UHGV virus genome: UHGV-0175496
Source of the DNA: a virus
Direction: 5' to 3' (one strand)
Length of the DNA stretch: 39,037 nt
The position numbers and the translations under genes are program-made. Numbering within the stretch: the first letter of the stretch is position 1; every line of letters begins with the position of its first letter. The notes beneath the pieces are model-generated. The model made no database searches. It saw only the letters and a program-made list of their open reading frames with translations, and was not told the DNA's origin. This document shows, piece by piece, positions 19,927-39,037 of this stretch.

Positions 19927-20166
19927 TTAACCGCGAGCTTCACGACCGTTTTCGTCTTCAGGCACACGGAAACGCCAGTACTTATCTGGCTTAACCCAAA
20001 CAACACTTTCACCGCTATCAACCCTGAATTTATTAATCACTTTTGTTGATAGCGCTTGGTTGCCATCCGCATTTTCTTTGAGGTGCTGCTCGTTATGTTG
20101 TTTAACGAGATAATCCACAACATCCTGCTGATAAAGGCAACCCTCTGTTGATAAAACGGACATCAT
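19927..20166 (-). CDS. Hypothetical small protein, antisense to the late operon
   Basis: 79-aa ORF with ATG start but weak RBS; downstream of the 20211..20393 gene on the same strand. Confidence 0.4.
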   Translation of the reverse strand: MMSVLSTEGCLYQQDVVDYLVKQHNEQHLKENADGNQALSTKVINKFRVDSGESVVWVKPDKYWRFRVPEDENGREARG

Positions 20167-20210
20167 CCATGATGAAATATCATCAAGAGTTAAGGTTGGT
20201 GTGTTTGGGG

Positions 20211-20393
20211 CTATGGCTTTGGGGTAACGCGCTCAAGAGATTCCGGTTTGAAATATCCTTGCTCAAGCTTCTTGCCAGCAAACCATTGACAAAGAAAAGA
20301 GTTACCTTGGGTAGATGAAAATAACCTGATAGTCATGTCAGGTCCGCCTGATTTCAGTTTAACAATGTCACCTGCTTTAAAGTCATTGTTCAT
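20211..20393 (-). CDS. Small conserved protein with a GDxVxLKSGGPxMT motif (DUF2158/YodC-like), antisense to the late operon
   Basis: 60 aa from the ATG at 20391-20393 preceded by AAGGAG; motif DFKAGDIVKLKSGGPDMTI. Family name recalled from memory. Confidence 0.5.
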   Translation of the reverse strand: MNNDFKAGDIVKLKSGGPDMTIRLFSSTQGNSFLCQWFAGKKLEQGYFKPESLERVTPKP

Positions 20394-20419
20394 AACAATC
20401 TCCTTATGGGAAGTAAAAA

Positions 20420-20947
20420 ATGGCACTCACCGACAAACAAGAAATGTTCTGTCGCGAGTACCTCATCGATTTAAATGCCACGCAAGCGGCTATTCGGGCG
20501 GGGTACAGCGCAAAGACAGCTAACCGTACCGCATCCGAAAACCTGTCAAAACCTGACATCAAGTTAAGAATCTCCGAACTGAAAGCGCAACGCAATGATC
20601 TTGTTAGTATTAATGCAGAATATGTACTTAATCGCCTTATTGAAATCGACCAGATGGATGTGCTCGACATTCTCCTGCAAAACGGCGAGTTAAAGCCAAT
20701 TAAAGACTGGCCTAAGGTATGGCGCACAACGTTATCAGGAATGGATGTTGTGGAGATGGTATCCGCAGATAGTGCAGCACTCCTGAAGAAAATCAAATGG
20801 CCTGATAAGGTTAAAAACCTCGAACTTCTTGGTAAGCATGTTTCTGTTCAGGCATTTAAAGAACAATCTTCTCACGAGCTAACCGGCAAAGACGGCGGCG
20901 CAATCCAGATTGAAACATCACCGATGAGCACTCTATTCGGAAAATGA
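20420..20947 (+). CDS. Terminase small subunit
   Basis: 175 aa; N-terminal MALTDKQEMFCREYLIDLNATQAAIRAGYSAKTANRTASENL is a typical TerS HTH; C-terminal GKDGGAIQIETSPMSTLFGK matches the Sf6-group TerS tail as remembered. Confidence 0.8.
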   Translation: MALTDKQEMFCREYLIDLNATQAAIRAGYSAKTANRTASENLSKPDIKLRISELKAQRNDLVSINAEYVLNRLIEIDQMDVLDILLQNGELKPIKDWPKVWRTTLSGMDVVEMVSADSAALLKKIKWPDKVKNLELLGKHVSVQAFKEQSSHELTGKDGGAIQIETSPMSTLFGK

Positions 20948-22356
20948 CCTCGATTAATCCTATCTTTGAACCGTTCATTGAGGCGCATCGCTACAAAGTC
21001 GCCAAAGGCGGTCGAGGTAGCGGTAAATCATGGGCAATTGCGAGACTGCTTGTTGAAGCGGCGCGTCGGCAGCCTGTGCGTATTCTCTGCGCTCGTGAAC
21101 TGCAAAACAGTATCAGCGATTCGGTAATCCGGTTGCTTGAAGATACCATCGAGCGTGAAGGGTATTCTGCTGAGTTTGAAATTCAGCGTTCAATGATTCG
21201 TCATCTCGGAACGAATGCTGAATTCATGTTCTACGGCATCAAAAACAACCCGACGAAGATTAAATCGCTCGAAGGCATTGATATCTGCTGGGTGGAAGAA
21301 GCGGAAGCGGTCACGAAGGAATCATGGGATATCCTGATACCAACCATCCGCAAGCCGTTTTCCGAAATATGGGTGAGCTTTAACCCGAAAAACATCCTCG
21401 ACGATACCTATCAGCGATTCGTCGTAAATCCTCCCGATGATATTTGTCTGCTGACGGTGAACTACACCGACAATCCGCACTTTCCTGAAGTTCTCCGTCT
21501 GGAGATGGAAGAGTGTAAACGCAGAAATCCGACACTGTATCGTCACATCTGGCTTGGTGAGCCAGTAAGCGCAAGTGATATGGCAATCATCAAACGTGAA
21601 TGGCTTGAAGCTGCTACCGATGCGCACAAGAAACTCGGATGGAAAGCGAAAGGCGCTGTTGTCTCTGCGCATGACCCGTCAGATACAGGGCCGGATGCTA
21701 AAGGTTATGCATCGCGTCACGGTTCGGTGGTTAAGCGCATTGCCGAAGGTCTGCTGATGGACATCAACGAGGGTGCTGACTGGGCTACTTCGCTGGCGAT
21801 TGAAGACGGCGCTGACCATTACCTGTGGGATGGTGATGGTGTTGGTGCCGGGCTACGCAGACAGACAACGGAAGCGTTCTCCGGCAAGAAAATCACCGCT
21901 ACGATGTTCAAGGGCAGCGAATCGCCATTTGATGAAGATGCACCATATCAGGCCGGAGCATGGGCTGATGAAGTCGTGCAGGGCGACAACGTTCGCACTA
22001 TTGGCGATGTATTCCGCAATAAGCGAGCGCAATTCTATTACGCGCTAGCTGACAGGCTGTATCTGACATATCGGGCGGTTGTCCACGGTGAGTATGCAGA
22101 CCCCGACGACATGCTGAGTTTCGACAAAGAAGCGATAGGCGAGAAGATGCTGGAGAAGCTGTTTGCAGAACTGACGCAGATTCAGCGCAAATTCAATAAT
22201 AACGGGAAGCTGGAGCTTATGACTAAGGTCGAAATGAAGCAGAAGCTCGGTATTCCATCTCCTAACCTGGCTGATGCGCTGATGATGTGTATGCATTGCC
22301 CGGCATTGGTCCGCGAAGAAACAGAAATATACGTTCCCTCATCCTCCGGTTGGTAA
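20944..22356 (+). CDS. Terminase large subunit
   Basis: 470 aa; Walker A KGGRGSGKS near the N-terminus, C-terminal nuclease domain; ATGA overlap with TerS. Confidence 0.95.
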   Translation: MTSINPIFEPFIEAHRYKVAKGGRGSGKSWAIARLLVEAARRQPVRILCARELQNSISDSVIRLLEDTIEREGYSAEFEIQRSMIRHLGTNAEFMFYGIKNNPTKIKSLEGIDICWVEEAEAVTKESWDILIPTIRKPFSEIWVSFNPKNILDDTYQRFVVNPPDDICLLTVNYTDNPHFPEVLRLEMEECKRRNPTLYRHIWLGEPVSASDMAIIKREWLEAATDAHKKLGWKAKGAVVSAHDPSDTGPDAKGYASRHGSVVKRIAEGLLMDINEGADWATSLAIEDGADHYLWDGDGVGAGLRRQTTEAFSGKKITATMFKGSESPFDEDAPYQAGAWADEVVQGDNVRTIGDVFRNKRAQFYYALADRLYLTYRAVVHGEYADPDDMLSFDKEAIGEKMLEKLFAELTQIQRKFNNNGKLELMTKVEMKQKLGIPSPNLADALMMCMHCPALVREETEIYVPSSSGW

Positions 22357-22358
22357 AC

Positions 22359-24485
22359 ATGGCAGAGACATTAGAGAAAAAACATGAGCGGATCATGCTC
22401 AGGTTTGACCGCGCCTATTCTCCACAGAAGGAAGTGCGCGAAAAGTGCATTGAAGCTACGAGGTTTGCTCGTGTCCCCGGAGGTCAATGGGAAGGAGCAA
22501 CGGCGGCTGGAACTAAGCTTGATGAGCAGTTCGAGAAGTATCCTAAGTTTGAAATCAATAAGGTAGCAACTGAACTTAACCGCATCATTGCAGAATACCG
22601 CAATAACAGAATAACCGTTAAGTTTCGTCCTGGTGACAGAGAGGCAAGCGAAGAGTTAGCCAATAAATTAAATGGTCTGTTCCGTGCTGACTACGAAGAA
22701 ACTGATGGCGGTGAGGCTTGCGATAATGCATTTGACGACGCTGCTACTGGTGGTTTCGGTTGCTTCCGTTTGACGTCGATGCTGGTCAATGAATACGACC
22801 CCATGGACGATCGTCAGCGTATTGCTATTGAACCAATATACGACCCGTCGCGCTCTGTGTGGTTTGACCCTGACGCTAAGAAGTACGACAAATCTGACGC
22901 GTTGTGGGCGTTCTGTATGTATTCGTTGTCACCTGAAAAATATGAGGCTGAATACGGAAAGAAACCTCCTACTTCTCTGGATGTAACGTCTATGACCAGT
23001 TGGGAATATAACTGGTTTGGTGCAGATGTTATTTACATAGCGAAGTATTACGAAGTTCGTAAAGAGTCTGTTGACGTTATCAGTTATCGACATCCAATCA
23101 CTGGAGAGATTGCAACATACGACAGTGATCAGATCGAAGATATTGAAGATGAACTGGCAATAGCTGGATTTCAGGAAGTTGCAAGGCGCTCAGTGAAGCG
23201 CCGTCGTGTGTATGTATCAGTAGTGGATGGTGATGGTTTCCTTGAGAAACCTCGACGTATTCCTGGTGAGCATATCCCCCTCATCCCGGTTTATGGAAAA
23301 CGCTGGTTCATTGATGACATTGAGCGTGTCGAAGGGCACATTGCAAAAGCAATGGATCCACAGCGTTTGTATAACCTTCAGGTATCAATGCTGGCTGATA
23401 CTGCAGCGCAAGACCCCGGTCAGATCCCTATAGTTGGCATGGAGCAAATTCGTGGACTTGAGAAGCACTGGGAGGCTCGCAACAAGAAACGCCCAGCGTT
23501 CTTGCCGTTGCGCGAAGTGAGAGATAAATCTGGCAACATTATCGCTGGAGCTACCCCGGCAGGATATACACAGCCTGCGGTTATGAATCAGGCATTGGCT
23601 GCATTACTACAGCAAACCAGTGCAGATATTCAGGAGGTTACAGGCGGCAGTCAGGCCATGCAGCAGATGCCAAGTAATATTGCTCAGGAAACGGTTAACA
23701 ACTTGATGAACAGAGCAGATATGGCTTCGTTTATCTATCTGGACAATATGGCGAAAAGTCTTAAACGCGCTGGTGAAGTATGGCTGTCAATGGCTCGTGA
23801 AGTGTACGGTTCAGAGCGTGAAGTGCGCATCGTTAACGAAGATGGAAGTGATGATATCGCTGTCCTGAGCGCACAGGTTGTTGACAGGCAAACAGGGGCT
23901 GTTGTTGCGTTAAATGACCTTTCTGTCGGTCGATACGATGTGACGGTTGATGTTGGACCAAGCTACACAGCACGACGTGATGCAACGGTTTCTGTACTGA
24001 CAAATGTCCTTAGCTCTATGCTTCCAACAGACCCAATGCGTCCGGCAATTCAGGGTATTATTCTGGACAATATCGATGGCGAAGGCCTTGATGACTTCAA
24101 AGAGTACAACCGAAACCAACTGCTGATATCTGGCATTGCAAAACCACGCAATGAGAAAGAGCAGCAGATTGTTCAACAGGCGCAAATGGCAGCACAAAGC
24201 CAGCCAAATCCTGAAATGGTTCTCGCTCAGGCGCAAATGGTAGCAGCGCAGGCAGAAGCGCAAAAAGCAACTAACGAAACTGCTCAAACTCAAATCAAAG
24301 CATTTACTGCCCAGCAGGATGCGATGGAGAGTCAGGCAAACACTGTCTATAAACTGGCTCAAGCCAGAAACATCGATGACAAAGCAGTGATGGAGGCAAT
24401 ACGCCTTCTGAAAGATGTCGCCGAGTCACAACAACAGCAATTCCAGTCACCACCACAGTCTCCGGCAGACTTAATGCCGAGTTAA
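22359..24485 (+). CDS. Portal protein (P22 gp1-like)
   Basis: About 708 aa from ATG 22359; segments such as GEHIPLIPVYGKRWFIDDIERVEGH parallel the P22 portal; Q-rich C-terminal barrel region. Confidence 0.9.
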   Translation: MAETLEKKHERIMLRFDRAYSPQKEVREKCIEATRFARVPGGQWEGATAAGTKLDEQFEKYPKFEINKVATELNRIIAEYRNNRITVKFRPGDREASEELANKLNGLFRADYEETDGGEACDNAFDDAATGGFGCFRLTSMLVNEYDPMDDRQRIAIEPIYDPSRSVWFDPDAKKYDKSDALWAFCMYSLSPEKYEAEYGKKPPTSLDVTSMTSWEYNWFGADVIYIAKYYEVRKESVDVISYRHPITGEIATYDSDQIEDIEDELAIAGFQEVARRSVKRRRVYVSVVDGDGFLEKPRRIPGEHIPLIPVYGKRWFIDDIERVEGHIAKAMDPQRLYNLQVSMLADTAAQDPGQIPIVGMEQIRGLEKHWEARNKKRPAFLPLREVRDKSGNIIAGATPAGYTQPAVMNQALAALLQQTSADIQEVTGGSQAMQQMPSNIAQETVNNLMNRADMASFIYLDNMAKSLKRAGEVWLSMAREVYGSEREVRIVNEDGSDDIAVLSAQVVDRQTGAVVALNDLSVGRYDVTVDVGPSYTARRDATVSVLTNVLSSMLPTDPMRPAIQGIILDNIDGEGLDDFKEYNRNQLLISGIAKPRNEKEQQIVQQAQMAAQSQPNPEMVLAQAQMVAAQAEAQKATNETAQTQIKAFTAQQDAMESQANTVYKLAQARNIDDKAVMEAIRLLKDVAESQQQQFQSPPQSPADLMPS

Positions 24486-24498
24486 CCAGGAGTAATCA

Positions 24499-25383
24499 AT
24501 GGAAAACGAACTGATCATCGACGGTCAGGTTATTGACCTGTCTGAAACGCAGGAAAATGCAGAAGAAACCATCATCCAAACAGAGTCACAGCCTGAGAAT
24601 GAAAGCCAGGATGACAACGGAAAAGAGATGGCAACTGATCCTGAAAAAACCGAAGAGACACCAGAAGATTACGCCTTGCGTATTGGTGATGAAGAAATTC
24701 AGCTTAACGCTGACGATGATGATCACATTGACGGGCAACCTGCACCGCAATGGGTGAAAGATCTTCGCAAAGGCTTCAAAGAAACACAGAAAGAAAACCG
24801 TGAGTTGCGCCGCCAGCTTGAGGAAGCATTAGCCAAGCCTGCGGAACATCAGCAACCACAACCAGACGCTATTCCACCAAAACCGACTCTTGAGTCGTGT
24901 GATTATGACGAACAGGCGTTTGAACAGGCATTGACTGATTGGCATGAGAAAAAAGGCCGTGTCGAACAGCAGCAGCAACAAAAACTACGTCAGCAACAGG
25001 AATACCAACAGCGTTTCCAGCAAAGGGTAGAAGCGCATAAACAACGGGCAGCCAAACTTCCTGTGAAAGATTATCAGGAAATGGAGGCCATTGTTCTTAG
25101 TGAGCTACCACCAATTCAGCAGGAAATCATCATTCACTGTGCAGACGAAGGCTCTGAACTACTCGCCTATGGCTTAGGTAAGAGCCAGCAATTACGCCAG
25201 CGTGTAGCCGCTGAGACAGATCCAATTCGCGCAGCATTCCTCTTGGGGCAGATTAGCAAACAGGTAAGCCTTGCTCCAAAACCAAAGAAAGCCATCAAGC
25301 CAGAGCCGGAAGTACGTGGTGGCGGTGCTGATGCGAAACAAGACGAATTCAACAAATTATGCCCCGGCGCAAAAATCGAATAA
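24499..25383 (+). CDS. Scaffolding protein
   Basis: 294 aa; highly acidic and Q-rich with a basic helix-rich C-terminus; lies between portal and coat as P22 gp8 does. Confidence 0.8.
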   Translation: MENELIIDGQVIDLSETQENAEETIIQTESQPENESQDDNGKEMATDPEKTEETPEDYALRIGDEEIQLNADDDDHIDGQPAPQWVKDLRKGFKETQKENRELRRQLEEALAKPAEHQQPQPDAIPPKPTLESCDYDEQAFEQALTDWHEKKGRVEQQQQQKLRQQQEYQQRFQQRVEAHKQRAAKLPVKDYQEMEAIVLSELPPIQQEIIIHCADEGSELLAYGLGKSQQLRQRVAAETDPIRAAFLLGQISKQVSLAPKPKKAIKPEPEVRGGGADAKQDEFNKLCPGAKIE

Positions 25384-25394
25384 GGAAAAGATAA

Positions 25395-26666
25395 ATGCCT
25401 AACAATCTCGACAGTAACGTCAGTCAAATCGTTCTGAAAAAATTCCTTCCTGGTTTTATGTCAGATTTAGTTCTGGCGAAAACCGTAGACCGTCAGTTGC
25501 TGGCAGGTGAAATCAACTCCAGCACTGGCGATAGCGTTAGCTTTAAACGTCCGCATCAATTCTCATCCCTCCGTACTCCCACTGGTGATATTTCAGGGCA
25601 AAATAAAAACAACCTGATCTCAGGTAAAGCTACGGGGCGTGTAGGTAACTACATCACTGTTGCTGTTGAATATCAGCAACTGGAGGAAGCGATCAAGCTT
25701 AACCAACTGGAGGAAATTCTCGCGCCGGTTCGCCAGCGAATCGTTACCGACCTTGAAACAGAGCTTGCTCACTTCATGATGAATAACGGTGCGTTGTCAC
25801 TTGGTAGCCCCAATACTCCAATCACCAAATGGTCTGATGTTGCGCAGACGGCATCTTTCCTGAAAGACCTCGGCGTTAATGAAGGTGAAAACTATGCTGT
25901 AATGGATCCATGGTCTGCACAGCGACTTGCTGATGCGCAGACTGGTTTGCACGCTTCAGATCAATTGGTTCGTACTGCATGGGAGAATGCACAGATCCCA
26001 ACCAATTTTGGCGGCATTCGCGCACTGATGTCTAATGGGCTTGCATCTCGTACGCAGGGGGCATTTGGCGGAACACTGACAGTCAAAACACAGCCAACTG
26101 TTACCTATAACGCAGTTAAAGACTCATACCAGTTCACTGTAACATTGACCGGAGCGACAGCCAGCGTTACAGGTTTTCTGAAAGCTGGTGATCAGGTTAA
26201 ATTCACCAATACCTACTGGCTGCAACAGCAGACCAAACAGGCGTTGTATAACGGAGCCACACCAATTAGCTTCACTGCAACGGTTACTGCTGATGCTAAT
26301 TCAGACAGCAGTGGCGATGTGACGGTTACGCTTTCTGGTGTTCCGATTTATGACACTACAAACCCGCAGTACAACTCTGTAAGTCGTCAGGTAGCGGCAG
26401 GCGATGCCGTATCTGTAGTAGGCACTGCTAGCCAGACAATGAAGCCAAACCTGTTCTATAACAAGTTCTTCTGTGGACTTGGCTCTATCCCACTGCCGAA
26501 ACTGCACAGTATTGATTCTGCTGTTGCAACATATGAAGGTTTCTCCATCCGCGTACATAAATACGCAGATGGCGATGCCAACGTGCAAAAAATGCGCTTT
26601 GACTTACTGCCTGCATATGTGTGCTTTAACCCTCACATGGGCGGTCAGTTCTTCGGTAATCCGTAA
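25395..26666 (+). CDS. Major coat protein (Sf6/HK620-group)
   Basis: 423 aa followed by a strong terminator; position and size fit P22-like coat genes. Confidence 0.85.
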   Translation: MPNNLDSNVSQIVLKKFLPGFMSDLVLAKTVDRQLLAGEINSSTGDSVSFKRPHQFSSLRTPTGDISGQNKNNLISGKATGRVGNYITVAVEYQQLEEAIKLNQLEEILAPVRQRIVTDLETELAHFMMNNGALSLGSPNTPITKWSDVAQTASFLKDLGVNEGENYAVMDPWSAQRLADAQTGLHASDQLVRTAWENAQIPTNFGGIRALMSNGLASRTQGAFGGTLTVKTQPTVTYNAVKDSYQFTVTLTGATASVTGFLKAGDQVKFTNTYWLQQQTKQALYNGATPISFTATVTADANSDSSGDVTVTLSGVPIYDTTNPQYNSVSRQVAAGDAVSVVGTASQTMKPNLFYNKFFCGLGSIPLPKLHSIDSAVATYEGFSIRVHKYADGDANVQKMRFDLLPAYVCFNPHMGGQFFGNP

Positions 26667-26671
26667 TAACA

Positions 26672-26695
26672 AGGGGCTTCCGCCCCTTTTATGTT
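26672..26695 (+). terminator. Intrinsic terminator after the coat gene (AAGGGGC-TTCC-GCCCCTT, TTTTATGTTTT)
   Basis: Perfect 7-bp GC-rich stem with a T-run, directly after the coat stop codon. Confidence 0.75.
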
Positions 26696-26708
26696 TTAAG
26701 GAAACAAT

Positions 26709-26894
26709 ATGGATCGCATGAGTGTATTCCTTGCCGCAGATAACGAATCCGGACATGTACAGGCCGTTATCGCAGAAAAAGACTTCCAGTTTTTCGAAAA
26801 GTTGGGCTTTGTTGCCTCAGTTGATGAATTGAAACCGACCAGTAAGCGAGGTCGTAAGGCGGCAGACAATGGCAACAGTACTGACAAAGGGTGA
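26709..26894 (+). CDS. Hypothetical small protein
   Basis: 61 aa; ATG with AAGGAAACAAT RBS just after the coat terminator. Confidence 0.45.
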   Translation: MDRMSVFLAADNESGHVQAVIAEKDFQFFEKLGFVASVDELKPTSKRGRKAADNGNSTDKG

Positions 26895-27351
26895 GATCGT
26901 CCTTTTTGCGCTTCGTAAGTTTGCTATTGCTTCTAATGCATCGCTGACTGATGTTGAGCCGCAATCAATTGAAGATGGTGTAAATGATCTGGAAGATATG
27001 ATGTCCGAGTGGATGATTAACCCCGGCGACATTGGTTACGCTTTCGCAACTGGAGATGAGCAGCCATTACCAGATGATGAGTCAGGTCTTCCAAGAAAAT
27101 ACAAACACGCAGTAGGCTATCAGTTATTGCTGAGAATGCTATCTGATTACAGCCTTGAACCAACTCCGCAAGTTCTCAGTAACGCCCAACGCTCATATGA
27201 TGCCTTGATGACCGACACTCTGGTTGTTCCTTCAATACGACGACGTGGAGATTTTCCTGTAGGACAGGGTAATAAATATGACGTGTTCACATCTGACCGA
27301 TATTATCCAGGCGATCTCCCTCTGATTGATGGCGATATCACAAACGCATAG
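26869..27351 (+). CDS. Head completion / tail accessory protein (P22 gp4-like)
   Basis: 160 aa, first gene of the gp4-gp10-gp26 block by synteny and size. Confidence 0.65.
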   Translation: MATVLTKGEIVLFALRKFAIASNASLTDVEPQSIEDGVNDLEDMMSEWMINPGDIGYAFATGDEQPLPDDESGLPRKYKHAVGYQLLLRMLSDYSLEPTPQVLSNAQRSYDALMTDTLVVPSIRRRGDFPVGQGNKYDVFTSDRYYPGDLPLIDGDITNA

Positions 27352-27359
27352 GTGAATAA

Positions 27360-28778
27360 ATGCCGATTCAGCAACTTCCGCTTATGAAAGGTGTCGGCAA
27401 AGACTTTCGAAACGCCGACTATATCGACTATCTACCAGTGAATATGTTGGCTACACCCAAAGAAATCCTTAACAGCAGCGGATATCTTCGCTCATTCCCG
27501 GGCATTGCCAAACGTTCTGATGTGAACGGTGTATCTCGCGGCGTCGAGTACAACATGGCGCAGAATGCTGTTTATCGTGTGTGTGGTGGAAAGCTCTACA
27601 AAGGCGAAAGTGAAGTCGGTGACGTCGCCGGAAGTGGCCGCGTATCAATGGCGCACGGTAGGACATCACAGGCAGTAGGCGTTAATGGTCAACTGGTCGA
27701 GTATCGTTATGATGGCACGGTTAAAACCGTCTCAAACTGGCCTACAGACAGCGGATTCACGCAGTATGAGTTAGGTTCGGTTCGCGACATTACGCGCTTA
27801 CGTGGGCGTTATGCGTGGTCAAAAGACGGAACTGATTCATGGTTTATCACTGACCTTGGAGACGAATCGCATCCTGACCGCTACAGCGCACAATATCGGG
27901 CAGAATCGCAGCCGGACGGAATCATCGGAATCGGAACATGGCGAGACTTCATTGTCTGCTTTGGTTCATCGACGATTGAATATTTTTCCCTGACAGGTGC
28001 AACCACCGTTGGTGCTGCTTTGTATGTCGCGCAGCCATCACTGATGGTGCAAAAAGGCATCGCCGGAACTTACTGCAAAACGCCGTTTGCTGATTCCTAT
28101 GCTTTCATCAGCAATCCGGCAACAGGTGCGCCGTCTGTGTATATCATCGGCTCCGGGCAGGTGTCACCAATCGCCAGCGCGAGCATTGAGAAAATCCTCC
28201 GCTCCTACACTGCTGATGAACTGGCTGATGGCGTGATGGAATCGCTGCGATTTGATGCGCATGAGTTGCTGATTATCCACCTTCCGCGCCATGTTCTAGT
28301 ATACGACGCATCTTCAAGTGCCAATGGTCCGCAATGGTGTGTGCTGAAAACAGGACTGTATGACGATGTGTACCGCGCTATCGACTTCATTTACGAAGGC
28401 AATCAGATAACGTGCGGTGATAAGCTGGAGTCCGTGACCGGGAAATTGCAATTCGACATCAGCAGCCAGTACGACAAGCAACAGGAACACCTGCTGTTTA
28501 CTCCACTCTTCAAAGCAGATAACGCCAGAGTTTTCGACCTTGAAGTTGAATCTTCAACTGGCGTTGCGCAGTATGCTGACCGCCTTTTTCTCTCTGCAAC
28601 CACTGACGGCATCAATTACGGTCGTGAGCAGATGATTGAGCAGAATGAACCGTTCGTTTATGACAAACGTGTTTTGTGGAAGCGAGTAGGGCGCATCAGG
28701 AAAAATGTCGGCTTCAAATTGCGCGTTATCACGAAGTCACCTGTCACTCTGTCTGGCGCTCAGATAAGGATTGAGTAA
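27360..28778 (+). CDS. Tail accessory / packaged-DNA stabilisation protein (P22 gp10-like)
   Basis: 472 aa, the same length as P22 gp10, in the expected position. Confidence 0.7.
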
Positions 28779-29626
28779 TGGCGGATTCGAATCTCAATGT
28801 GCCGGTAATCATTCAGGCCACACGGCTCGACACATCAGTCCTTCCACGCAATATCTTCTCGCAGTCGTATCTGCTTTACGTTATCGCACAGGGCACTGAT
28901 GTTGGTAATGTGGCTAACAAGGCCAACGAGGCCGGACAGGGCGCTTATGATGCACAGGTCAGGAACGATGAGCAGGATGTGATTCTCGCTGACCATGAGC
29001 AGCGAATTTCTGCTGCGGAAGCAACGCTTGTTAATCATGAGGAGCGAATCAGCCAGGCAGAATCAACTCTTCAGGAACATGAAACACGAATAGCTCAGAA
29101 TGAAAGCGATATTGCGTCGCTTGATACCAGAGTTCAGTCGCTGGAATCGCAGGTTTCAGACCATGAAACGCGCATCGATGCTCTGGAGTATGCCACTACT
29201 CGCAAGAAGTCAGAGGTTGTTTACTCTGGCGTATCTGTAACCATCCCGACAGCGCCGACCAACCTTGTTAGCCTGCTGAAAACGCTCACGCCGTCATCCG
29301 GCTCGTTGGCACCATTCTTCGACACCGTTAACGACAAGATGGTTGTGTTCAACGAGAACAAAACCTTGTTCTTCAAGCTGTCGATCGTCGGGACGTGGCC
29401 CAGCGGAACCGCCAACAGGTCAATGCAGCTAACCTTTTCAGGCTCTGTTCCTGACACACTGGTAAGCAGTCGTAATGCGGCGACAACAACCGACAACATC
29501 CTGTTAGCTACGTTCTTCAGCGTGGATAAAGACGGCTTTCTTGCCACAAATGGCAGTACGTTAACCATTCAGTCAAATGGGGCGGCGTTTACTGCCACAA
29601 CCATCAAGATAATCGCGGAGCAGTAA
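28778..29626 (+). CDS. Tail needle (P22 gp26-like) with C-terminal knob
   Basis: 282 aa; repeating coiled-coil heptads ([43 protein letters not shown]...) then a ~120-aa C-terminal extension, as in Sf6/HK620-type needles. Confidence 0.8.
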
Positions 29627-30081
29627 TGATTCAGTTCAAACCAACGCGAAACATCGACCTGATCGAAGCAGTCGGAAATCACCCTGACATTATTGCCGGA
29701 AGCAACAACGGTGATGGATACGAATACAAGCCTGAATGCCGTTACTTTGAGGTGAACGTGCACGGTCAGTTTGGCGGCATTGTTTACTATCAGGAGATTC
29801 AGCCGCTGACATTCGATTGCCACGCCATGTACCTGCCAGAGATTCGCGGCTTCAGCAAGGAAATCGGGCTGGCGTTCTGGCGATACATTCTGACTAACAC
29901 CACCGTTCAGTGCGTCACATCGTTCGCTGCACGCAAATTCCGCCACGGGCAGATGTACTGCGCAATGATTGGCCTTAAGCGTGTAGGAACCATCAAGAAA
30001 TACTTCAAAGGCGTGGATGACGTGACATTTTACAGTGCTACACGCGAAGAACTAATCGACTTCCTGAATCACGGGAGATAG
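29626..30081 (+). CDS. gp14-like head assembly / ejection-associated protein
   Basis: 151 aa; assigned by position after the tail needle; TAATG overlap. Confidence 0.5.
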   Translation: MIQFKPTRNIDLIEAVGNHPDIIAGSNNGDGYEYKPECRYFEVNVHGQFGGIVYYQEIQPLTFDCHAMYLPEIRGFSKEIGLAFWRYILTNTTVQCVTSFAARKFRHGQMYCAMIGLKRVGTIKKYFKGVDDVTFYSATREELIDFLNHGR

Positions 30082-30083
30082 CC

Positions 30084-30776
30084 ATGTTATATGCATTTAA
30101 GCTGGGCAGAAAACTGCGCGGCGAGGAACCTTATTGCCCTGAAAAAGGCGGGAAAGGTGGCAGCTCTGATAAAAGCGCAAAGTATGCAGCAGAAGCTCAG
30201 AAGTATGCCGCAGACCTGCAAAATCAGCAGTGGCAGACGATCATGAAAAACCTTGCTCCGTTCACGCCGCTTGCGGAGCAGTATGTTAACCAGCTTCAGA
30301 ATCTTTCCAGTTTAGAAGGTCAGGGGCAGGCACTTAATCAGTATTACAATTCTCAGCAGTATAAAGACCTTGCAGGTCAGGCTCGTTACCAGAGTCTTGC
30401 TGCTGCGGAGGCGACTGGCGGACTTGGTTCGACAGCCACAAGCAATCAACTGGCTACGATTGCTCCGACTCTCGGTCAGTCGTGGTTATCAAACCAGATG
30501 AGCAATTACAACAATCTGGCAAACGTTGGGCTTGGTGCGCTGCAAGGTCAGGCAAACGCTGGGCAGACATACGCCAACAACATGAGCAGCATTGCACAGC
30601 AAAGTGCAGCACTTGCCGCTGCTAATGCCAATAAACCATCAAGTCTTCAGACTGCAATTAGCGGTGGCACGTCTGGTGCGATTGCCGGTGCAGGTCTTGC
30701 CAGTCTTTTGGGAACATCAACGCCTTGGGGCGCTGGCATTGGTGCTGGTATCGGATTGCTTGGCTCGTTGTTTTAA
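30084..30776 (+). CDS. Ejection (internal virion) protein, P22 gp7-like
   Basis: 230 aa with a Gly/Ala-rich hydrophobic C-terminus (GAIAGAGLASLLGTSTPWGAGIGAGIGLLGSLF); size matches P22 gp7. Confidence 0.65.
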   Translation: MLYAFKLGRKLRGEEPYCPEKGGKGGSSDKSAKYAAEAQKYAADLQNQQWQTIMKNLAPFTPLAEQYVNQLQNLSSLEGQGQALNQYYNSQQYKDLAGQARYQSLAAAEATGGLGSTATSNQLATIAPTLGQSWLSNQMSNYNNLANVGLGALQGQANAGQTYANNMSSIAQQSAALAAANANKPSSLQTAISGGTSGAIAGAGLASLLGTSTPWGAGIGAGIGLLGSLF

Positions 30777-30785
30777 GGGGTAATC

Positions 30786-32117
30786 ATGGCTACTTGGCAA
30801 GGAACAAACGGCGGATTGTTGGCTGGTATCGGCGGCGTCAACTCAAACGCTCCGAGCGTAAATGACATCGGCAATACGCTTCAGCTTATCAGGCAGAACA
30901 ATGATATTGAGCGTTCAGGCGCTAACAATGTTGGGCTGACAGCTTTGCAAGGCCTTTCAGGTATTGCGGGGGTGTTTCAGCAGGAAAAGCAGGCTCAGCG
31001 GCAGAAAGAATTTCAGCAGGCGTACGCTAATGCTTATGCGTCTGGTGATCGCGGTGCTTTGCGTCAGTTGGCTACTCAATATCCAGACCAGATTGAATCC
31101 GTTCGTAAAGGCATGGGATTCATTGATGAAGAGCAGCGTAATTCTATCGGCACCTTAGCGGCTGGCGCACGCCTTGCATCATCGTCTCCAGAAGCAATGC
31201 AATCATGGCTGCAAAACAACGCCGGTGAGTTAGCTCGTGTTGGCGTTAATCCTCAGGATGTCGCTCAGATGTACCAACAGAACCCGCAGCAGTTCGGCGA
31301 ATTTGTCGATCACCTAGGGATGGCCAGCCTCGGCCCCGAAAAATACTTTGACCTTCAGGATAAAATGCAGGGTCGTCAGGTGACCATGCGCGGTCAGGAT
31401 CTGGATTCGCAAACCGCCGCTCGGAATCAGGCAATCACAATGCGCGGACAAGATATCCAGGCGAATTTAGGTCAGCAGCGCATTAATCTGGACGCAGAAA
31501 CAAACCGCATTAACAACGAAAATAAGCGCCTTGACCGGATGCTATCAGCAGAAGCTAACGACCTGAAGCGACAGGAAATACAGAGCCGCATAGCAGCCAA
31601 CAACCAGAAGTTGCAGCAGAAGCAGCAAGAGCTAAATGATGGCTACAAAGACGGCATCAACACCCTCACAACCAGCATGTTCACTCTGAACGATATCGTT
31701 AGTTCTCCTTCACTTAAGAGCATTACAGGCTTACGTGGGGTAATCCCCAACGTTCCAGGCTCACAGGCTGCCGACACTCAGGCACGACTTGATACCTTTA
31801 AATCCCAAGCATACCTGACAGCGGTTCAGGCCATGCGAGGCATGGGTGCACTTTCTGATGCCGAGGGCAAAAAGCTCGACCAGGCTGTTGGTTCTCTGCA
31901 AAACTCGCAGAGCGAGGAGTCCTTTCGTCGCAACGCTGGCGTCATCCTGAACACGCTCAACCAGAAGCGTAATGAGGCGGTTGGTAAGTACGTTCAGCAA
32001 AACGGTATCAAGCGAGTGGAAGCGCCTCAGGCTTCTATAGATTACCTGAAGCAGCACCCCGAGCTGTCAATCGACTTCATTAATCGCTACGGATATCTTC
32101 CATCTTTGGGGCAGTAA
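30786..32117 (+). CDS. Ejection protein, P22 gp20-like
   Basis: 443 aa, Q/N-rich and coiled-coil-rich; second ejection gene by synteny. Confidence 0.6.
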   Translation: MATWQGTNGGLLAGIGGVNSNAPSVNDIGNTLQLIRQNNDIERSGANNVGLTALQGLSGIAGVFQQEKQAQRQKEFQQAYANAYASGDRGALRQLATQYPDQIESVRKGMGFIDEEQRNSIGTLAAGARLASSSPEAMQSWLQNNAGELARVGVNPQDVAQMYQQNPQQFGEFVDHLGMASLGPEKYFDLQDKMQGRQVTMRGQDLDSQTAARNQAITMRGQDIQANLGQQRINLDAETNRINNENKRLDRMLSAEANDLKRQEIQSRIAANNQKLQQKQQELNDGYKDGINTLTTSMFTLNDIVSSPSLKSITGLRGVIPNVPGSQAADTQARLDTFKSQAYLTAVQAMRGMGALSDAEGKKLDQAVGSLQNSQSEESFRRNAGVILNTLNQKRNEAVGKYVQQNGIKRVEAPQASIDYLKQHPELSIDFINRYGYLPSLGQ

Positions 32118-34511
32118 ATGGCTAATTACCGTGATTTGTTAGAGCAGGCTGGCGCACGTTACGGTGTGCCAGAAGGGTTGATGACTGCACTGGGTGCCAA
32201 GGAGTCTTCTTACAACCCTGCCGCAGTAAGCTCCGCCGGGGCTGTAGGATTGACTCAGGTCATGCCTGGGACATGGCGTGATATGGGTTATACCGATGAG
32301 CAAATGCAAAACCCCGAATATCAGGCTGACGCTGGCGCGCGCTATCTGGCAAAGATGTACCAGCAGTTTGGTAACTGGCGTGACGCTCTTCAGGCTTATC
32401 ACGACGGTCCCGGCAACGTTATGAAGGCAAAGCGTGGTGAATATACGCCAGGACCTGAAGGCCGCGGTTACGTTGATGATCGCTTTGCTCAATGGGCGGG
32501 TGACCCGGTGACAGACTCAACAGTCGAACAGCGCGCCACCTCTGCAAAGGTACATCCTCAGCAAGACCCTAACAACCCGTTTGCACAACTGGAAGTACAG
32601 TCATCCGAACAAGTATCGGCATCAGGTGTGCAGTCAGACCCAAATAATCCATTTGCTCAGATTGAGCAGCAGGCAGCCAGTCAGCAGCCACCTCAACCCG
32701 TAAGTTCCGTCGCACCGAAACCTGTTCAGCAGCAAGGCGGAATAATGTCTGACCTTGGTAATGGACTTGCTGAAACCGGGCGCGGCTTACTACAGGCAGG
32801 AATCAACGTAGCGAACATACCTGCTGAACTCACTGATGCTGTAACAAGCGCGGCGGCTTGGGCTGGCGGTAAACTCGGCATTGGCGATGGTACATATCAA
32901 CCAGCGCCACGAGTAACAACGCAGGGATTAGAGCAGGACTTTGGCCTTCAGCAAGGCGCGCTGACTCCACAAACTACAGAGGGCAGGGTATTTGCTGAGG
33001 CATTGCCTTACCTCACTCCTGCTGGCATTGAGAGAGCGGCAACACAGGCACCAACACTTGCTGGTCGAATTGCTCAGGGGGCAACTCGCCTTCTAGCAGA
33101 AAACGCAGTCGGATCACTTGCTGCAAATAGTGCGAAAGATGATGCGGAAGCACTCGCCACCGATTTAGGCGTTGGTGTACTTGCTGGCGGTGCTATTAAC
33201 GCTGCCGGACGTGGATTAGGTGCTGCTTATCGTGGCGTTAGTGGTGCTATCGCGCCAGAAGCACAGCAGGCTATCAGATTTGCAGAGCGTGAAGGCGTTC
33301 CTCTGCACACCACAGACCTGTTACAACCCACTTCCCGCGTCGGAAAAATGGCGCAGACTACAGCAGAAAATATCCCTCTGGCTGGCACAAGCGGAATGAG
33401 AGCAACGCAACAGGAAGCGAGAAGCCAGTTGGTGCAGAGATTTGCTGATAAATTCGGTGAGTATGATCCAGCTGTTGTTATTGACAGCCTTAAAGCGAAA
33501 ACATCAGGAATTCGTCGTGCTGCAGGGAACCGTCTTGAGCAGGTTCAGAATGCTATGGCTGGAGTAAACATTCAGCCTGCGCGAGCAATTCAGCAGATTG
33601 ATACAGAAATATCTAACCTGCAGAAGCTTGGTAAGGTTGCTGATAACGAGACAATTTCAAAACTTCAGTCATATCGTGATGAGCTTGTTCGCAATGCTGG
33701 CCCTGATGGCCCGGTAAATCTGGATTTGAAGCAATTAAGCGACCTGCGCAGCCAGTTCAGAATGGACGTGAAGGGTGAGCGACCAGTGTTACCAAACCGT
33801 TCCGATGCTGCCATTCAGCGCGTTTACAAGGCAATGACTGACGATATCAATGGTGCCATTGGTCAGAATCTTGGCAACGATACTCTCCGTAAATATCAGC
33901 AGGCCAATGCCGTCTACGCTGACGAAGCGGCGAAACTAAAGAATACCAGGCTGAAGAATGTTCTCATGAAAGGCGACCTGACGCCGGAAGTTGTCAACAA
34001 CATGCTATTCAGCAAGAACAAATCGGAAATTAAGACGCTGTATAACTCAGTTGGTCGTGTTGGCAGGGCGCAAATGCGCAATGGCATCATTGGAAAGGCG
34101 ATGGAGAAATCTGGCGGATCCCCTGACCAGTTCCTTCGGCAGCTTAACATCCTGCAAAACCAGACTGGCATCACATTTAAGGGGCAGGACGCTGCTTATC
34201 TGAAAGGATTAAAAAACTATCTGCAATCCACGCAGCAGGCTGCAAAAGCGGCAGTAACAACACCCACAGGGCAGCAAACCATCCCGTTCATTATCGGATA
34301 TGGGACGGCAATGAACCCGGCGACAACTGGCGCAGCAGTAAGCTACGGCCTTCTTGCTCGCGCCTATGAGAGTAAGCCATTCAGAGATGCAATGCTACGA
34401 ATGGCAAACACACCACGCGGATCAACAGCGTTTGAGAAAGCCATGCAGCAGGCACAAAAGGCAATTAACGCTATGACGCAGGGGGCTAAGTCTGATGCAT
34501 TGTCAGAATAG
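32118..34511 (+). CDS. Ejection protein (gp16 position) with an N-terminal soluble lytic transglycosylase domain
   Basis: 797 aa; N-terminus carries the SLT family signature GAKESSYNPAAVSSAGAVGLTQVMPGTWRDMGY...QAYHDGPGNV. Confidence 0.7.
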   Translation: MANYRDLLEQAGARYGVPEGLMTALGAKESSYNPAAVSSAGAVGLTQVMPGTWRDMGYTDEQMQNPEYQADAGARYLAKMYQQFGNWRDALQAYHDGPGNVMKAKRGEYTPGPEGRGYVDDRFAQWAGDPVTDSTVEQRATSAKVHPQQDPNNPFAQLEVQSSEQVSASGVQSDPNNPFAQIEQQAASQQPPQPVSSVAPKPVQQQGGIMSDLGNGLAETGRGLLQAGINVANIPAELTDAVTSAAAWAGGKLGIGDGTYQPAPRVTTQGLEQDFGLQQGALTPQTTEGRVFAEALPYLTPAGIERAATQAPTLAGRIAQGATRLLAENAVGSLAANSAKDDAEALATDLGVGVLAGGAINAAGRGLGAAYRGVSGAIAPEAQQAIRFAEREGVPLHTTDLLQPTSRVGKMAQTTAENIPLAGTSGMRATQQEARSQLVQRFADKFGEYDPAVVIDSLKAKTSGIRRAAGNRLEQVQNAMAGVNIQPARAIQQIDTEISNLQKLGKVADNETISKLQSYRDELVRNAGPDGPVNLDLKQLSDLRSQFRMDVKGERPVLPNRSDAAIQRVYKAMTDDINGAIGQNLGNDTLRKYQQANAVYADEAAKLKNTRLKNVLMKGDLTPEVVNNMLFSKNKSEIKTLYNSVGRVGRAQMRNGIIGKAMEKSGGSPDQFLRQLNILQNQTGITFKGQDAAYLKGLKNYLQSTQQAAKAAVTTPTGQQTIPFIIGYGTAMNPATTGAAVSYGLLARAYESKPFRDAMLRMANTPRGSTAFEKAMQQAQKAINAMTQGAKSDALSE

Positions 34512-34601
34512 CTTTTCAAACACCAGGAACGTGCAAAAACCAAATATGTAGAACGCGAGGTTTATCGTATCCCTCTGCATAGGCGATACCTTTGCTGATT
34601 G

Positions 34602-35087
34602 TTATCTGATGTTACTGCTACTGTTGCATGTGACTGTATTTCCAAACCCTGAATTGCAGTTTGTGTAAGTGTCAACTCGTGTTGGATAGGGTTGAGTTAT
34701 AACAGGCTGTCTCGCTTTTTGCTCGATCGCTTGCATTGTGTTTACAGCCTGATAATTCAATAAAGCCTGCTGGAATGCTTGGCTTTGTGCTATTTGTTGG
34801 GTTTGTTCTTGGCTTTGTAATTGAACATAAAGATTCTGAAGCTCAAGTCTTGCCTGTGCGTCACTTATTTTACCTTCATCAACACCTTGCCCGAGCATCT
34901 TTGCAGCAAGGACATACAGCTTAGGTGTTGGTGCAGACGCCATGCGTGAGTCGTTCTTTACACTGGCATCAAGGCAATTAGCCATATCGCTAAGCTTTTG
35001 ATAGCGTTGTTCGCAACTTGCTTGATAGTCACTTACTTTTGCGCATCCAACCAGCAGAAGAGGGATAATTAACAGTGATTTTTTCAT
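34602..35087 (-). CDS. Lipoprotein of unknown function in the immI-equivalent region (candidate exclusion or conversion factor)
   Basis: 161 aa from ATG 35085-35087 (AGGAG upstream); MKKSLLIIPLLLVGC lipobox signal peptide; Q-rich helical middle; Cys-rich C-terminus. Opposite strand to the structural genes. Confidence 0.65.
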   Translation of the reverse strand: MKKSLLIIPLLLVGCAKVSDYQASCEQRYQKLSDMANCLDASVKNDSRMASAPTPKLYVLAAKMLGQGVDEGKISDAQARLELQNLYVQLQSQEQTQQIAQSQAFQQALLNYQAVNTMQAIEQKARQPVITQPYPTRVDTYTNCNSGFGNTVTCNSSSNIR

Positions 35088-35157
35088 ATGGTTAACTCTC
35101 CTTAGTTTTTCACCGGATATCATGAAGGCAATGCCATTTTAGCCGGAAACTAGATTT

Positions 35158-35424
35158 CTATGTTTCCTTTTTATTATTGCTATACATGGTCTTAAGCGTT
35201 TCAAAAACCATTCTCTTAACCATATCAGATTGTTGTTCTGCCATACGCTCTGCATCGTCAATGTAAACGGATGCAGAGCTTTGTTTAGCCAATGATTCTT
35301 CAATCGCTGCAATTATCTCTGAGTTCAGCGATCTGTTATTCATCTTCGCACGCTGTTTAATTTTCGCGTGGAGTTCATGCGGAAGTCTCAAGTGAAACTG
35401 CGCCTCGTCGTATTTGCTGTACAT
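35158..35424 (-). CDS. mnt: Mnt-like ribbon-helix-helix repressor
   Basis: About 88 aa; FHLRLPHELHAKIKQRAKMNNRSLNSEIIAAIEESL and C-terminal DDAERMAEQQSDMVKRMVFETLKTMY parallel P22 Mnt. Confidence 0.75.
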   Translation of the reverse strand: MYSKYDEAQFHLRLPHELHAKIKQRAKMNNRSLNSEIIAAIEESLAKQSSASVYIDDAERMAEQQSDMVKRMVFETLKTMYSNNKKET

Positions 35425-35545
35425 CCTTGATGCCTCACCAGTTGGGTGGAATGGCATCGTAACCTACTGGATAAATACTCAATAGTACCATTTCGGTATG
35501 CAATCACATCATGGTTGCATCATATCATTCGTCTGGAGCAATGAA

Positions 35546-37681
35546 ATGTCAGATATCACCGCAAATGTTGTGGTAAGCATGCCTTCGCAACTCTTCACTA
35601 TGGCGCGTTCTTTTAAAGCTGTAGCCAATGGCAAAATTTATATCGGTAAAATTGACACTGACCCTGTAAATCCTGAAAACCAGATTCAGGTTTATGTGGA
35701 GAACGAAGACGGCTCTCACGTTCCTGTATCGCAACCAATCATCATTAACGCTGCTGGTTACCCGGTATATAACGGACAGATTGCCAAATTCGTTACCGTG
35801 CAAGGCCATTCTATGGCTGTTTATGATGCGTATGGTACACAGCAGTTCTATTTTCCGAATGTGCTGAAGTATGACCCTGATCAACTCAGGTCTGAATTAT
35901 CAGCTCAGGGTGGAGATAAGATTGTTGGTAGTTCGTATGGCGGAACCGTCTATACAGACTACAGTCCATCAGAATTCATTAAGTTTGCAGAATTCACCGT
36001 CCCAACAAGTCTTTCAAACAATAGACAAGCCGTTAAATATATAGACGGATTTTGGTATGTATGGAATGGAACATTTCCATACAATACTGGAACGTCAAAT
36101 CCTGGTAATAATGACACATGGAAATGCGTTGGACTTCTAAATGGTTTTTCGGTTAATGACGCTCAGAACTTTGGCTTCACAGGGGGTATGGACGATGCAC
36201 TTCCAGCGCTAAATGCGATGATTAGAAGCCCATTTTTTGAAATGTTTTTCCCTATTGGAAGTGAAATTAATATTTCGTCTGACTGGAATCTCCGTTCAAA
36301 TTTATATATAAACTTTCACGGTTCAACAATCAACTGGATGGGTGCTGCTTTCTCAAGTTCTGATGTTGTGAATGGTAGCGAGATGGCCATTTTAAATACG
36401 CCAAATTTTTCAGGTGGAACTACAGGGGCACTCGTAAACCTTCATCTGTCAAACTTAAATATTAAAGCAAATGATTACGCAATAGGCATAAGTGCAAGGA
36501 ATATTACAAATTTCTCTATAGAGAATGTTTATGTAGAGAAAGCGCAACGTCAAGGAATTAATGTATCTAATTGCCAGAATGGATGTATTAATCAAATAAC
36601 TCTGAAAGATTGCTCTCCTTTATCTGATAAAGGATTTACTAGCTCACAGCTAGAGAGTTGGGGCGATGGATTGATTGTATGGTATGGAAGCACTAACGTA
36701 TCCATTGATAACATTAGAGTTGAATCAGGAAATAATTCACGAGGAGGTCGCTGCGGTATCTGTATCGATGGTTATGCTCCATCCGGAAAGCCAGATTCAC
36801 GCAATATTTCTGTGAATAACGCTTATGTTTACGGTTATGACAGGCCTATACATACCGAACTATGCGGTATTGTTACCGTAACTAACAGTGTTTTCGAATA
36901 CAACTCAGGCTCTGACACGCATCACTTTTTGCAATGTGGTGTCGTCGTGTGGAATGTCCTTGAAACCACTACTTTTATCAACTGCACGTTTCGCACAGAT
37001 ATGCGGTTTATGAAAAACTCAGGCGCTAAGGCGAAATTCATAAAATGTAATGTGTACAAAACATCAAGCACTGAGCCTATGTTTATAACAGGTACAGAGC
37101 AAACAGGTATAGTTAATTTTGATGACTGCTTACTTTCTCATGCCGGTGGTGAATGGGGGGCTTGGAACTGTTCATTAAGTTTTAATGGTTGCACGATATC
37201 ATCTGATTCTGCTGGATCTGTTATTAATTTTGGTAGCGAATCCATACCAAAAAATATCACTATTGTTAATTCACATCTGTTAAACACATCAATATCAGCA
37301 CTGTTCGCACCTGGATTTACTGAAATTCATCTTTCTAATTCAACAATAAATGGAGATGTTAATTGCGGACCTTCTGCCAGACTTCGTGTAAATTCATGCG
37401 ATATATATGGAGTCGTTACATGCAATAGTGTAATGAGATACAACGGACAGAAACCAAATAAATTAATTTATTTGCAAAATGCAGACCAGCAATACAATGG
37501 CATGTGGCTAGGAACGCGCCCACCACTAGGTGCTAGACCAGATGGATCTGGAGATTGGTTGAGGGGTGATATAGTTTTTAATCTCGACGCCATAGAGTCA
37601 ACACCATTCCAATGGTATTGCGTAACCCCAGGATCGCCTGGAAGATGGGCTGTATCTGGAACTCTTGGCGCAGCTTCTTAA
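35546..37681 (+). CDS. Tailspike with P22-type head-binding N-terminal domain and a distinct receptor-binding domain
   Basis: About 711 aa from ATG 35546 (GGAG upstream). N-terminal ~110 aa ([47 protein letters not shown]...VLKYDPDQ) closely match the P22 gp9 head-binding domain; the rest differs and is rich in N/S/T/G beta-helix-like repeats. Confidence 0.9.
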
Positions 37682-37793
37682 ATTTAAATGAATAACTATA
37701 TTAGTTAATGGTCTTATCTCTGTCACAACCTCATGACACACAAAGCTTTGCACTGGATTGCAAGGCTTTGTGCCATTCGATAGTTAAGGTGGA

Positions 37794-38987
37794 TCACTCC
37801 ACCTTCCCATCAAGCCAGTCCGCCCACCATTGCATCATTTCTCTGCGCTTATCGAGATACTGAGCATGGTTGTAAATCCCGCGCACAGATCCGCCATTGG
37901 CATGTGCCAGTTGCACTTCAATAGCATCAGCGGGCCATTCGTGCTCGTTCATAATCGTGCTGAATTCATGCCTGAATCCGTGACCGCTTTCCAGACCCTC
38001 ATAGCCGATTTGTTTGATCACAAGTAGCACCGCGTTCTCGCAGATTGGCTTCTTCTTATCGTTGCGCCCGGAAAAAACAAACTCTGATACTGGTTTAGTG
38101 ATTGAGCTTAGTGTAGTGAGAAGTTCAACCACCTGGTCTGACATCGGGACAACATGAATTTTGCGTCCCTTCATCACACTGGCGTCGATGGTGATAATCC
38201 TGTTTTCAAAATCGACGTTCTTCCATAGCATGGAACGAAGCTCTTTTGTTCTTAGGGCTGTGTAGCGTAAAACTTTGGTCGCAATGAGCGATACGATACT
38301 TCCTGAAAATGTTGCAAGTGCTTTGTTGAATGCCGAGATCTGGTCGGCAGGTAAAAACGGGAAGTTCTTCTTGCGGTATCCCTTCATGGCGTCAGCAAGG
38401 TCAGGTGCCGGGTTATATTTAGCCCTACCAGTGACAATAGCGTAACGGAAAACCTCGCCGCATCTTCTGCGTGCTTTGTTGGCTCGCTCCATTGCACCGC
38501 GATCTTCAAATCTGCGGATTACTTCCAGCAGTTGCATCGGCTCAATATCCTGAATTTCAAGGCCGCCGATGATGGGTAAAATGTCGTCATCAAACATTTT
38601 TGCAAGTTCATTTGCATAGCCTACTGACCAGACTTGCTTCTTGTGCTCGTACCATTCCTTGTAAATCGCACTAAAGGAATTGTTGTTAGACGAAGCCTTT
38701 TTCGCTTTTACCGGATCGATGCCAACCGAGATGTCTTTCCTCGCGGTCCATGCTTTATCCCTTGCCTCTTGCAAAGTCATAAGCGGATATTTTCCGACGG
38801 TCAGGATTTTCTCCTTACCGTCAATCTTGTAGCGAAGCTGCCATACCTTTTTCCCTGATACAGGGACATAAAGGTACAGGCCATTACCATCGAGTAGGCG
38901 GTATGGTTTTTCTTTCGGCTTTGCTGCTTCAATCTGCTTAACGGTGAGCATGGGTAAAAATCCGGTGGGTAAAATTATTTTATCCAC
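37794..38987 (-). CDS. Tyrosine integrase of the P4/DUF4102 family
   Basis: Probable true start is the ATG at 38949-38951 (MLTVKQIEAAKPKEKPYRLLDGNGLYLYV); the track's start codon is GTG. Catalytic HGFRHE and a C-terminal Tyr; 3' end faces the tailspike. Confidence 0.85.
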   Translation of the reverse strand: MDKIILPTGFLPMLTVKQIEAAKPKEKPYRLLDGNGLYLYVPVSGKKVWQLRYKIDGKEKILTVGKYPLMTLQEARDKAWTARKDISVGIDPVKAKKASSNNNSFSAIYKEWYEHKKQVWSVGYANELAKMFDDDILPIIGGLEIQDIEPMQLLEVIRRFEDRGAMERANKARRRCGEVFRYAIVTGRAKYNPAPDLADAMKGYRKKNFPFLPADQISAFNKALATFSGSIVSLIATKVLRYTALRTKELRSMLWKNVDFENRIITIDASVMKGRKIHVVPMSDQVVELLTTLSSITKPVSEFVFSGRNDKKKPICENAVLLVIKQIGYEGLESGHGFRHEFSTIMNEHEWPADAIEVQLAHANGGSVRGIYNHAQYLDKRREMMQWWADWLDGKVE

Positions 38988-39037
38988 TTTTTACCCGTCA
39001 TGGAGTGCGGCTGTCAACGATCTGACGCGAACCATGA

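Follow-up and report, generated by a model that had tools for sequence, protein, structure and literature searches.

An IntS recombination module and a lambda int-xis module at the two ends of a composite lambdoid prophage sequence

The tailspike-intS end of the window

The window, by which we mean the whole stretch of viral DNA that was analysed (39,037 bp of UHGV virus genome UHGV-0175496), closes on its right with a P22-like tailspike gene, a short spacer and a convergent gene for a tyrosine integrase, upstream of which lie several short repeats. The features of this end are the following.

35498-37681, plus strand: P22-like tailspike, 727 aa in its longest ORF, with a PF09008 head-binding domain (3e-67)
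37739-37752 / 37759-37772, no strand: hairpin with a 14-bp stem and a 6-nt loop, 93% complementarity
37786-37793 / 37798-37805, no strand: perfect 8-bp inverted repeat around a 4-nt loop that contains the int stop codon
37794-38951, minus strand: intS, KplE1/HK620/Sf6-type tyrosine integrase of 385 aa, intact, assigned by Pfam and by identity to HK620 Int
38952-38959 (plus), 38967-38974 (plus) and 38989-38996 (minus): GGGTAAAA arm-type sites, assigned by sequence match
38952-39037, minus strand: P' arm (the integrase-proximal one) of the IntS att site, cut off 75 nt before the argW 3'-end core

The longest minus-strand reading of the integrase ORF runs over 37794-38987 (397 aa), and the ATG at 38951, which is the annotated intS start in homologues, gives a protein of 385 aa with its stop codon at 37794-37796. 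Three Pfam domains together cover the full length, i.e. (i) PF13356 (2.3e-25), the P4-type arm-binding domain formerly known as DUF4102, which spans residues 14-98 of the 397-aa ORF, (ii) PF22022, the integrase central domain, and (iii) PF00589 (2.1e-38), the tyrosine-recombinase catalytic domain, the latter two both lying in the 385-aa IntS. The first-pass annotation had proposed that a second tyrosine integrase, from a different family with a P4-like arm domain, abuts the tailspike, and this is borne out by PF13356 and by the ORF coordinates, since between the end of the tailspike ORF (37681) and the int stop (from 37794) there is a spacer (37682-37793) of the same 112 bp that had been quoted. 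Given that the NCBIfam model PRK09692 scores the integrase at 237 bits, below its cutoff of 434, the resemblance to P4-like integrases would be one of family level only. HK620 Int is identical to the window integrase at 377 of 385 aa (97.9%), and the DNA from about 37735 to 39037 shows 95.6-98% identity to the integrase regions of HK620, Sf6, CUS-3, IME10, Kapi1 and others. Genes annotated as 'prophage integrase IntS' match the integrase DNA in 2,797 of 5,426 complete E. coli genomes, while the exact protein was found on 19 contigs, on which it adjoins argW and yfdC wherever the context extends far enough. The second integrase is thus IntS of the KplE1(CPS-53)/HK620/Sf6/CUS-3 recombination module.

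The spacer between the two convergent genes is highly structured, with region 37682-37830 folding at z = -4.5 on both strands. The perfect 8-bp inverted repeat that had been reported over the int stop is indeed present at 37786-37805, and a stronger 14-bp hairpin, which had been missed, sits between tailspike and int; the HK620 feature 38289..23, annotated as the terminator of the excision transcript, maps onto this hairpin (37739-37772). We therefore picture the spacer as a stretch that would hold terminator-type hairpins, without attP. As a side observation, the hairpin (37739-37773) doubles as a boundary of mosaic modules: in the one IMG/VR contig matched by a 50-mer of the tailspike 3' end, the phage UViG_2645727945_000025, the tailspike 3' end is 99.76% identical exactly up to 37773 and is followed by a different integrase, and in various IntS-type phages homology to the window begins at 37735-37804. 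In contigs identical to the window the tailspike is called as 711 aa, with its start at 35546, and because of this called start the 727-aa product has no entry on record.

On the other side of intS, the GGGTAAAA/TTTTACCC repeats that had been described around the integrase start were recovered where they had been placed. A fourth GGGTAAAA copy lies at 38574, inside int, and the whole window holds six copies against 0.74 expected, a count that was reached in 1 of 100 shuffles. A promoter scan returned a sigma-70-like, PintS-like match on the minus strand (-35 at 39001-38996, -10 at 38979-38974), which overlies the repeats. The 86 nt upstream of intS (38952-39037) differ by 1 nt from the K-12 KplE1/CPS-53 attL, and the HK620 record (int = 50-1207) places two attP repeats (1207-1232 and 1232-1253) and a promoter (1224-1273) right on the int start. 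Work on KplE1 has shown experimentally that the intS promoter overlaps attL, that arm-type P' sites of IntS (with a conserved TAAA motif) and TorI sites lie within attL, and that intS is repressed by IntS and TorI (Panis et al., PLoS Genet 2010, PMC2951348). Because the window's arm is almost that of K-12 attL and because of these experiments, the repeats can be identified, by sequence, as arm-type sites already known for IntS; they overlap the intS promoter, and through this overlap IntS (and TorI) would repress intS.

Where the arm leads is visible in related records. When the window is aligned with free HK620 and two integrated prophages, the four sequences agree to the window end except at one position, at which HK620 and one of the two prophages differ from the window. 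Past the window end, HK620 and the prophages remain homologous over about 90 nt, with a few substitutions, as far as TGGTGTCCCCTGCAG; from there HK620 continues into its other att arm, whereas the prophages enter the tRNA-Arg body. The divergence at TGGTGTCCCCTGCAG therefore puts the crossover site beyond the window, at the 3' end of argW. The HK620 record is in keeping with this, with its attP core at 1368-1383, about 160 bp upstream of the int start. In this module, the 3' end of the tRNA-Arg gene argW serves as the att core, about 160 bp upstream of int, and the stretch from the int ATG to this core is the P' arm; after integration, int sits at one prophage end and reads inward to the tailspike, and the cognate excisionase TorI sits at the far prophage end, beside dsdC. 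A tblastn search of the window for TorI/hkaC gave nothing better than E = 2.4.

The record from which the window itself comes turned up in none of the collections, and its flanks were read from identical or near-identical contigs. On the right, six loci (L003-L008) are 100% identical to the window up to 39037, four of them from 27794-27827 and the others from 29208 and 32463, and in contigs 100% identical to this part argW begins 75 nt past the window end. Three of the loci (L003, L004 and L007) run through argW into yfdC, two of these (L003 and L004) on into mlaA and fadL, and L005, L006 and L008 stop inside argW. The contig ends of these last three (GCA_032476415.1, SRR5963268, SRR5963267) fall 90-104 nt past the window end, in the argW 3' end/core, as expected when the core is duplicated at both prophage ends. 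Textbook knowledge of the KplE1/HK620/Sf6 module already covers this integrase, its place behind the tailspike, the repeats at its start and the regulation of the gene through them.

The lambda end and the ninB join

At its left end the window carries a second, lambda-type recombination module, with these features.

1-49, no strand: truncated lambda P' arm, present from 24 nt beyond the 15-bp core onward; integrase-proximal part of lambda attL (BOP')
50-1120, minus strand: lambda-type integrase of 356 aa, with PF09003 (7e-33) and PF00589
1098-1316, minus strand: lambda-type excisionase Xis of 72 aa, annotated at the same position in RM14721 and NT1F25

The first-pass annotation had reported a complete lambda int-xis with a P' arm and had pointed out that the lambda core is missing. 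Int and xis are there (PF07825 is found on Xis in identical contexts) and so is the P' arm, in truncated form, since window base 1 corresponds to lambda coordinate 27763, inside that arm, and only what follows 27763 is included. The core is indeed absent from the window, with up to 2 mismatches allowed, and the lambda P arm, searched for with the sequence upstream of the P' arm of phage Huey, has no match in the window either. The lambda module is therefore represented on the att side by its P' arm only, with no complete attP and no matched attL/attR pair. The host side of this end is again clear from related records, in which the exact lambda-type Int adjoins ybhC in all ten of the places shown. 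The ENA contig ERZ27296019 k141_1088 equals window 1-12805 with 1 mismatch and then enters ybhC, and the complete genome of RM14721, 99.91% identical over window 1-13430, has the order ybhC ... GCTTTTTTATACTAA, 24 nt, window base 1.

Both window ends are thus integrase-proximal att arms, of lambda attL on one side and of IntS attL on the other, and the DNA between them falls into two parts. The left 13.6 kb compare with phage 434 at 97.8% identity over 80% of their length, and the right 25.6 kb are an Sf6/HK620-like late region. The window is a composite, of a 434/lambda-like part from att-lambda and an Sf6/HK620-like part from argW, and whichever origin of the join is correct, each of the two integrases comes from a different well-known module. 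In the structure that we propose, bases 1 to about 13.4 kb would be a 434/lambda-like prophage at att-lambda beside ybhC, about 13.4-39 kb would be an Sf6/HK620-like prophage at argW, and the two would meet in a segment common to both prophages.

12914-13381, plus strand: shared ninB segment of about 468 bp, limits inferred, which acts as an assembly repeat in this lineage

A few other genes of the two parts deserve mention in their own right. On the left, a 293-aa ORF (7676-8557, minus strand) with no Pfam match lies in the 434-like early-left operon, between N and the DUF2528 gene on the cIII side, and is kept in RM14721 and NT1F25 as a hypothetical protein. On the right, a small terminase subunit of the Terminase_2 type (PF03592) stands beside a P22-like Terminase_3 large subunit (20420-22356), and the contig collection has this exact TerS in 37 blocks, which makes it uncommon. 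Just upstream of terS, two small genes on the minus strand (19927-20166 and 20211-20393) oppose the late operon, in a moron-like placement; they carry PF22266 (DUF6953) and PF09926 (DUF2158), and both are kept in several P22-like prophages with this TerS.

The evidence for the ninB segment comes from where related sequences part and where assemblies break. RM14721 is identical to window 10891-13382 and diverges from 13383. In k=141 assemblies a contig on the ybhC side ends at about 13053 and one on the argW side starts at 13242, and in other assemblies the right-hand contigs begin at about 13366 and 13472, positions that were worked out from the lengths of the contigs; a right-hand contig ending at 13242 was seen in at least 16 copies, and one locus (L063) is 100% identical to the window over 13242-30947. 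By the logic of de Bruijn graphs, we infer that these genomes contain two copies of 12914-13381, each with flanks of its own. The sequence at 13430 is not unique, being shared by three IMG/VR phages that have ninB and the same downstream gene.

What the two parents would look like on their own can be seen in other genomes. NT1F25 has the left-type early region followed by dam-ninE-ninX-rusA-Q-porin and lambda-like packaging genes, the late region of RM14721 has been replaced by trkG and an IS1 element, and NCCP 13717 has the layout of the right parent, dsdC-torI ... O-P-ren-ninB ... tailspike-intS-argW. Ten contexts of the exact O protein show lambda-like late genes where their reach suffices, and none of the ten has the join of the window. 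Nor was a contig linking both halves found through exact NinG, NinB, a 133-aa nin-region protein, TerS or O. A gapped ren-ninB-ninE pattern (32 nt of ren, N470, then 60 nt covering the ninB 3' end and the ninE start) had 0 matches in JGI metagenomes, IMG/VR and GTDB representative genomes, and a ren-ninB-ninE join without intervening dam occurs in no complete E. coli genome. Several observations on ninB itself have a bearing beyond this window: exact NinB occurs in lambda-like and P22-like prophages alike and is listed for about 35,800 blocks of the contig collection, the retrieved contigs of the lineage with placeable ends stop inside or just past ninB and none of those retrieved bridges it, and the gene, which is short and highly conserved, systematically breaks assemblies of lambdoid prophages and exposes them to chimeras.

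How the join arose is a matter of probability. Because the shared segment is short, because the join is seen in no long contig or closed genome, and because the closed genomes that were searched evidently do not include the source, we lean towards a wrong resolution of the ninB repeat in the source assembly, which would have linked the left arm of an att-lambda prophage to the right arm of an argW prophage. The alternative, which we regard as possible if somewhat doubtful, and which refines the composite reading without contradicting its core, is that the join is real and that one crossover in the shared ninB of two oppositely oriented prophages inverted a segment of about 1.66 Mb containing the terminus. 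The geometry of a single reciprocal crossover does fit. In K-12 orientation, the late genes of the att-lambda prophage are on the plus strand (locus L036, oriented by its gal-mod-ybhC order), and those of the argW prophage are on the minus strand (L067, compared with K-12 L078). The window flanks in identical contigs are exactly ybhC and argW, as such a crossover would have it. Moreover, inversions via prophage recombination have been documented in E. coli O157:H7 (PMC8743559). However, the identical segment measures only about 468 bp, the ren-ninB-ninE join is in no complete genome or contig, and close relatives have the canonical arrangement, while the behaviour of short-read assemblies cannot be brought to bear, since they would break at ninB under a chimera and a real recombinant alike. 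In K-12, argW is at 2,466,309. The inverted segment would extend from about 0.8 Mb to 2.47 Mb on the K-12 map.

We regard it as rather unlikely that the composite is physically real, a product of inversion in which lambda attL (at ybhC) and IntS attL (at argW) form two 'left' ends. Such an element would have two intact integrases and lambda Xis, no TorI and no usable att partner, so that excision would be impossible; it would be a P22-like/434-like hybrid that is locked in but complete in other respects and could still replicate and package in place, and it would add a further case of prophage-driven chromosome inversion and of a prophage trapped by mismatched ends.

Linear limits of the window and the place of attP

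Whether the join was made in the cell or in the assembler, the next question is whether the window closes on itself, as the first-pass annotation had considered when it placed two integrases of different families head to tail on the premise of joined ends. The junction does not support this premise: 1,400 nt made of the window end and start had no match in 5,426 complete E. coli genomes or in phage records, and a 29-mer across the junction was not found in IMG/VR. What lies past both ends, in identical and near-identical contigs, is host DNA, the very observation that had been named beforehand as telling against the idea. Host DNA beyond both ends, together with the lack of any record that joins them, means that the window is linear and not circular. 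It is a linear slice that breaks off before either att core, 75 nt from that of argW and 24 nt from that of lambda; its boundaries coincide with no ORF end on either strand.

It is accordingly very improbable that the window represents a complete circular or permuted phage with intS and lambda int-xis head to tail, both att cores having been lost through illegitimate recombination, which is the form that the conditional reading of the first-pass annotation would have to take. The size of 39,037 bp is typical of P22-like genomes and the lambdoid gene set is full, which would suit such a phage, but it would be a circular phage without any attP, and both window ends fall just inside att arms that run into host DNA.

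The weakest proposal, that the attP of the second integrase lies within the 112-bp tailspike-int spacer, as in P22 or in P22-like phages with a lambda int, has next to no chance of being right: although phages such as Huey do have a tailspike followed by a lambda-type int whose P' arm faces it, and although the spacer folds strongly, the core is placed upstream of int both in the HK620 annotation and by the KplE1 experiments (PMC2951348), the prophage att sites part from HK620 attP at the argW 3' end, outside the spacer, and the spacer is unbroken with tailspike and int in integrated prophages. A 'usual tailspike-attP-int layout' had been assumed for this region and has to be given up, with the att core mapping upstream of int and the spacer contiguous in integrated prophages. 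A comparison with tRNA 3' ends had also been suggested for the tailspike-int region; the argW core has no match anywhere in the window, with up to 3 mismatches allowed, and no tRNA gene or tRNA-like sequence was found in it. As a candidate attP, the spacer was ruled out on the upstream core, on its contiguity in integrated prophages and on the missing argW core.

The best explanation overall, in which we have considerable confidence, is therefore a known IntS module at the end of a linear composite of two prophages. The lesson is a general one: a prophage slice that has a different integrase at each end and no att core points to a composite and not to a new integration strategy, and such a composite is either a mis-resolved repeat common to two lambdoid prophages or a product of prophage recombination.

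Comparison with known systems

As in the KplE1/HK620/Sf6/CUS-3 module, a convergent int directly follows the tailspike and has arm repeats and a promoter upstream; unlike this module, the window has no core and no TorI/attR end, and carries lambda int-xis and a P' arm instead. As in lambda and 434 at att-lambda (between ybhC and ybhB), it shows the order int-xis-attL (BOP'), with the exact Int beside ybhC, whereas the core and the P arm are absent from it and its late genes are P22-like.

The inversions of E. coli O157:H7 (PMC8743559) offer a parallel for a real join, in that they involve oppositely oriented lambdoid prophages flanking the terminus, homologous sequence and mismatched hybrid ends. 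The difference is that inversion is here a hypothesis, with about 468 bp in common and no bridging read, contig or genome found. Finally, Escherichia phage Huey shows that mixtures of this kind occur naturally, since it combines a P22-like virion module with lambda int-xis. In Huey, three small genes separate the tailspike from the lambda int-xis that follows it, the P' arm faces these genes and intS is absent, whereas the window keeps intS after its tailspike and has no lambda P arm.
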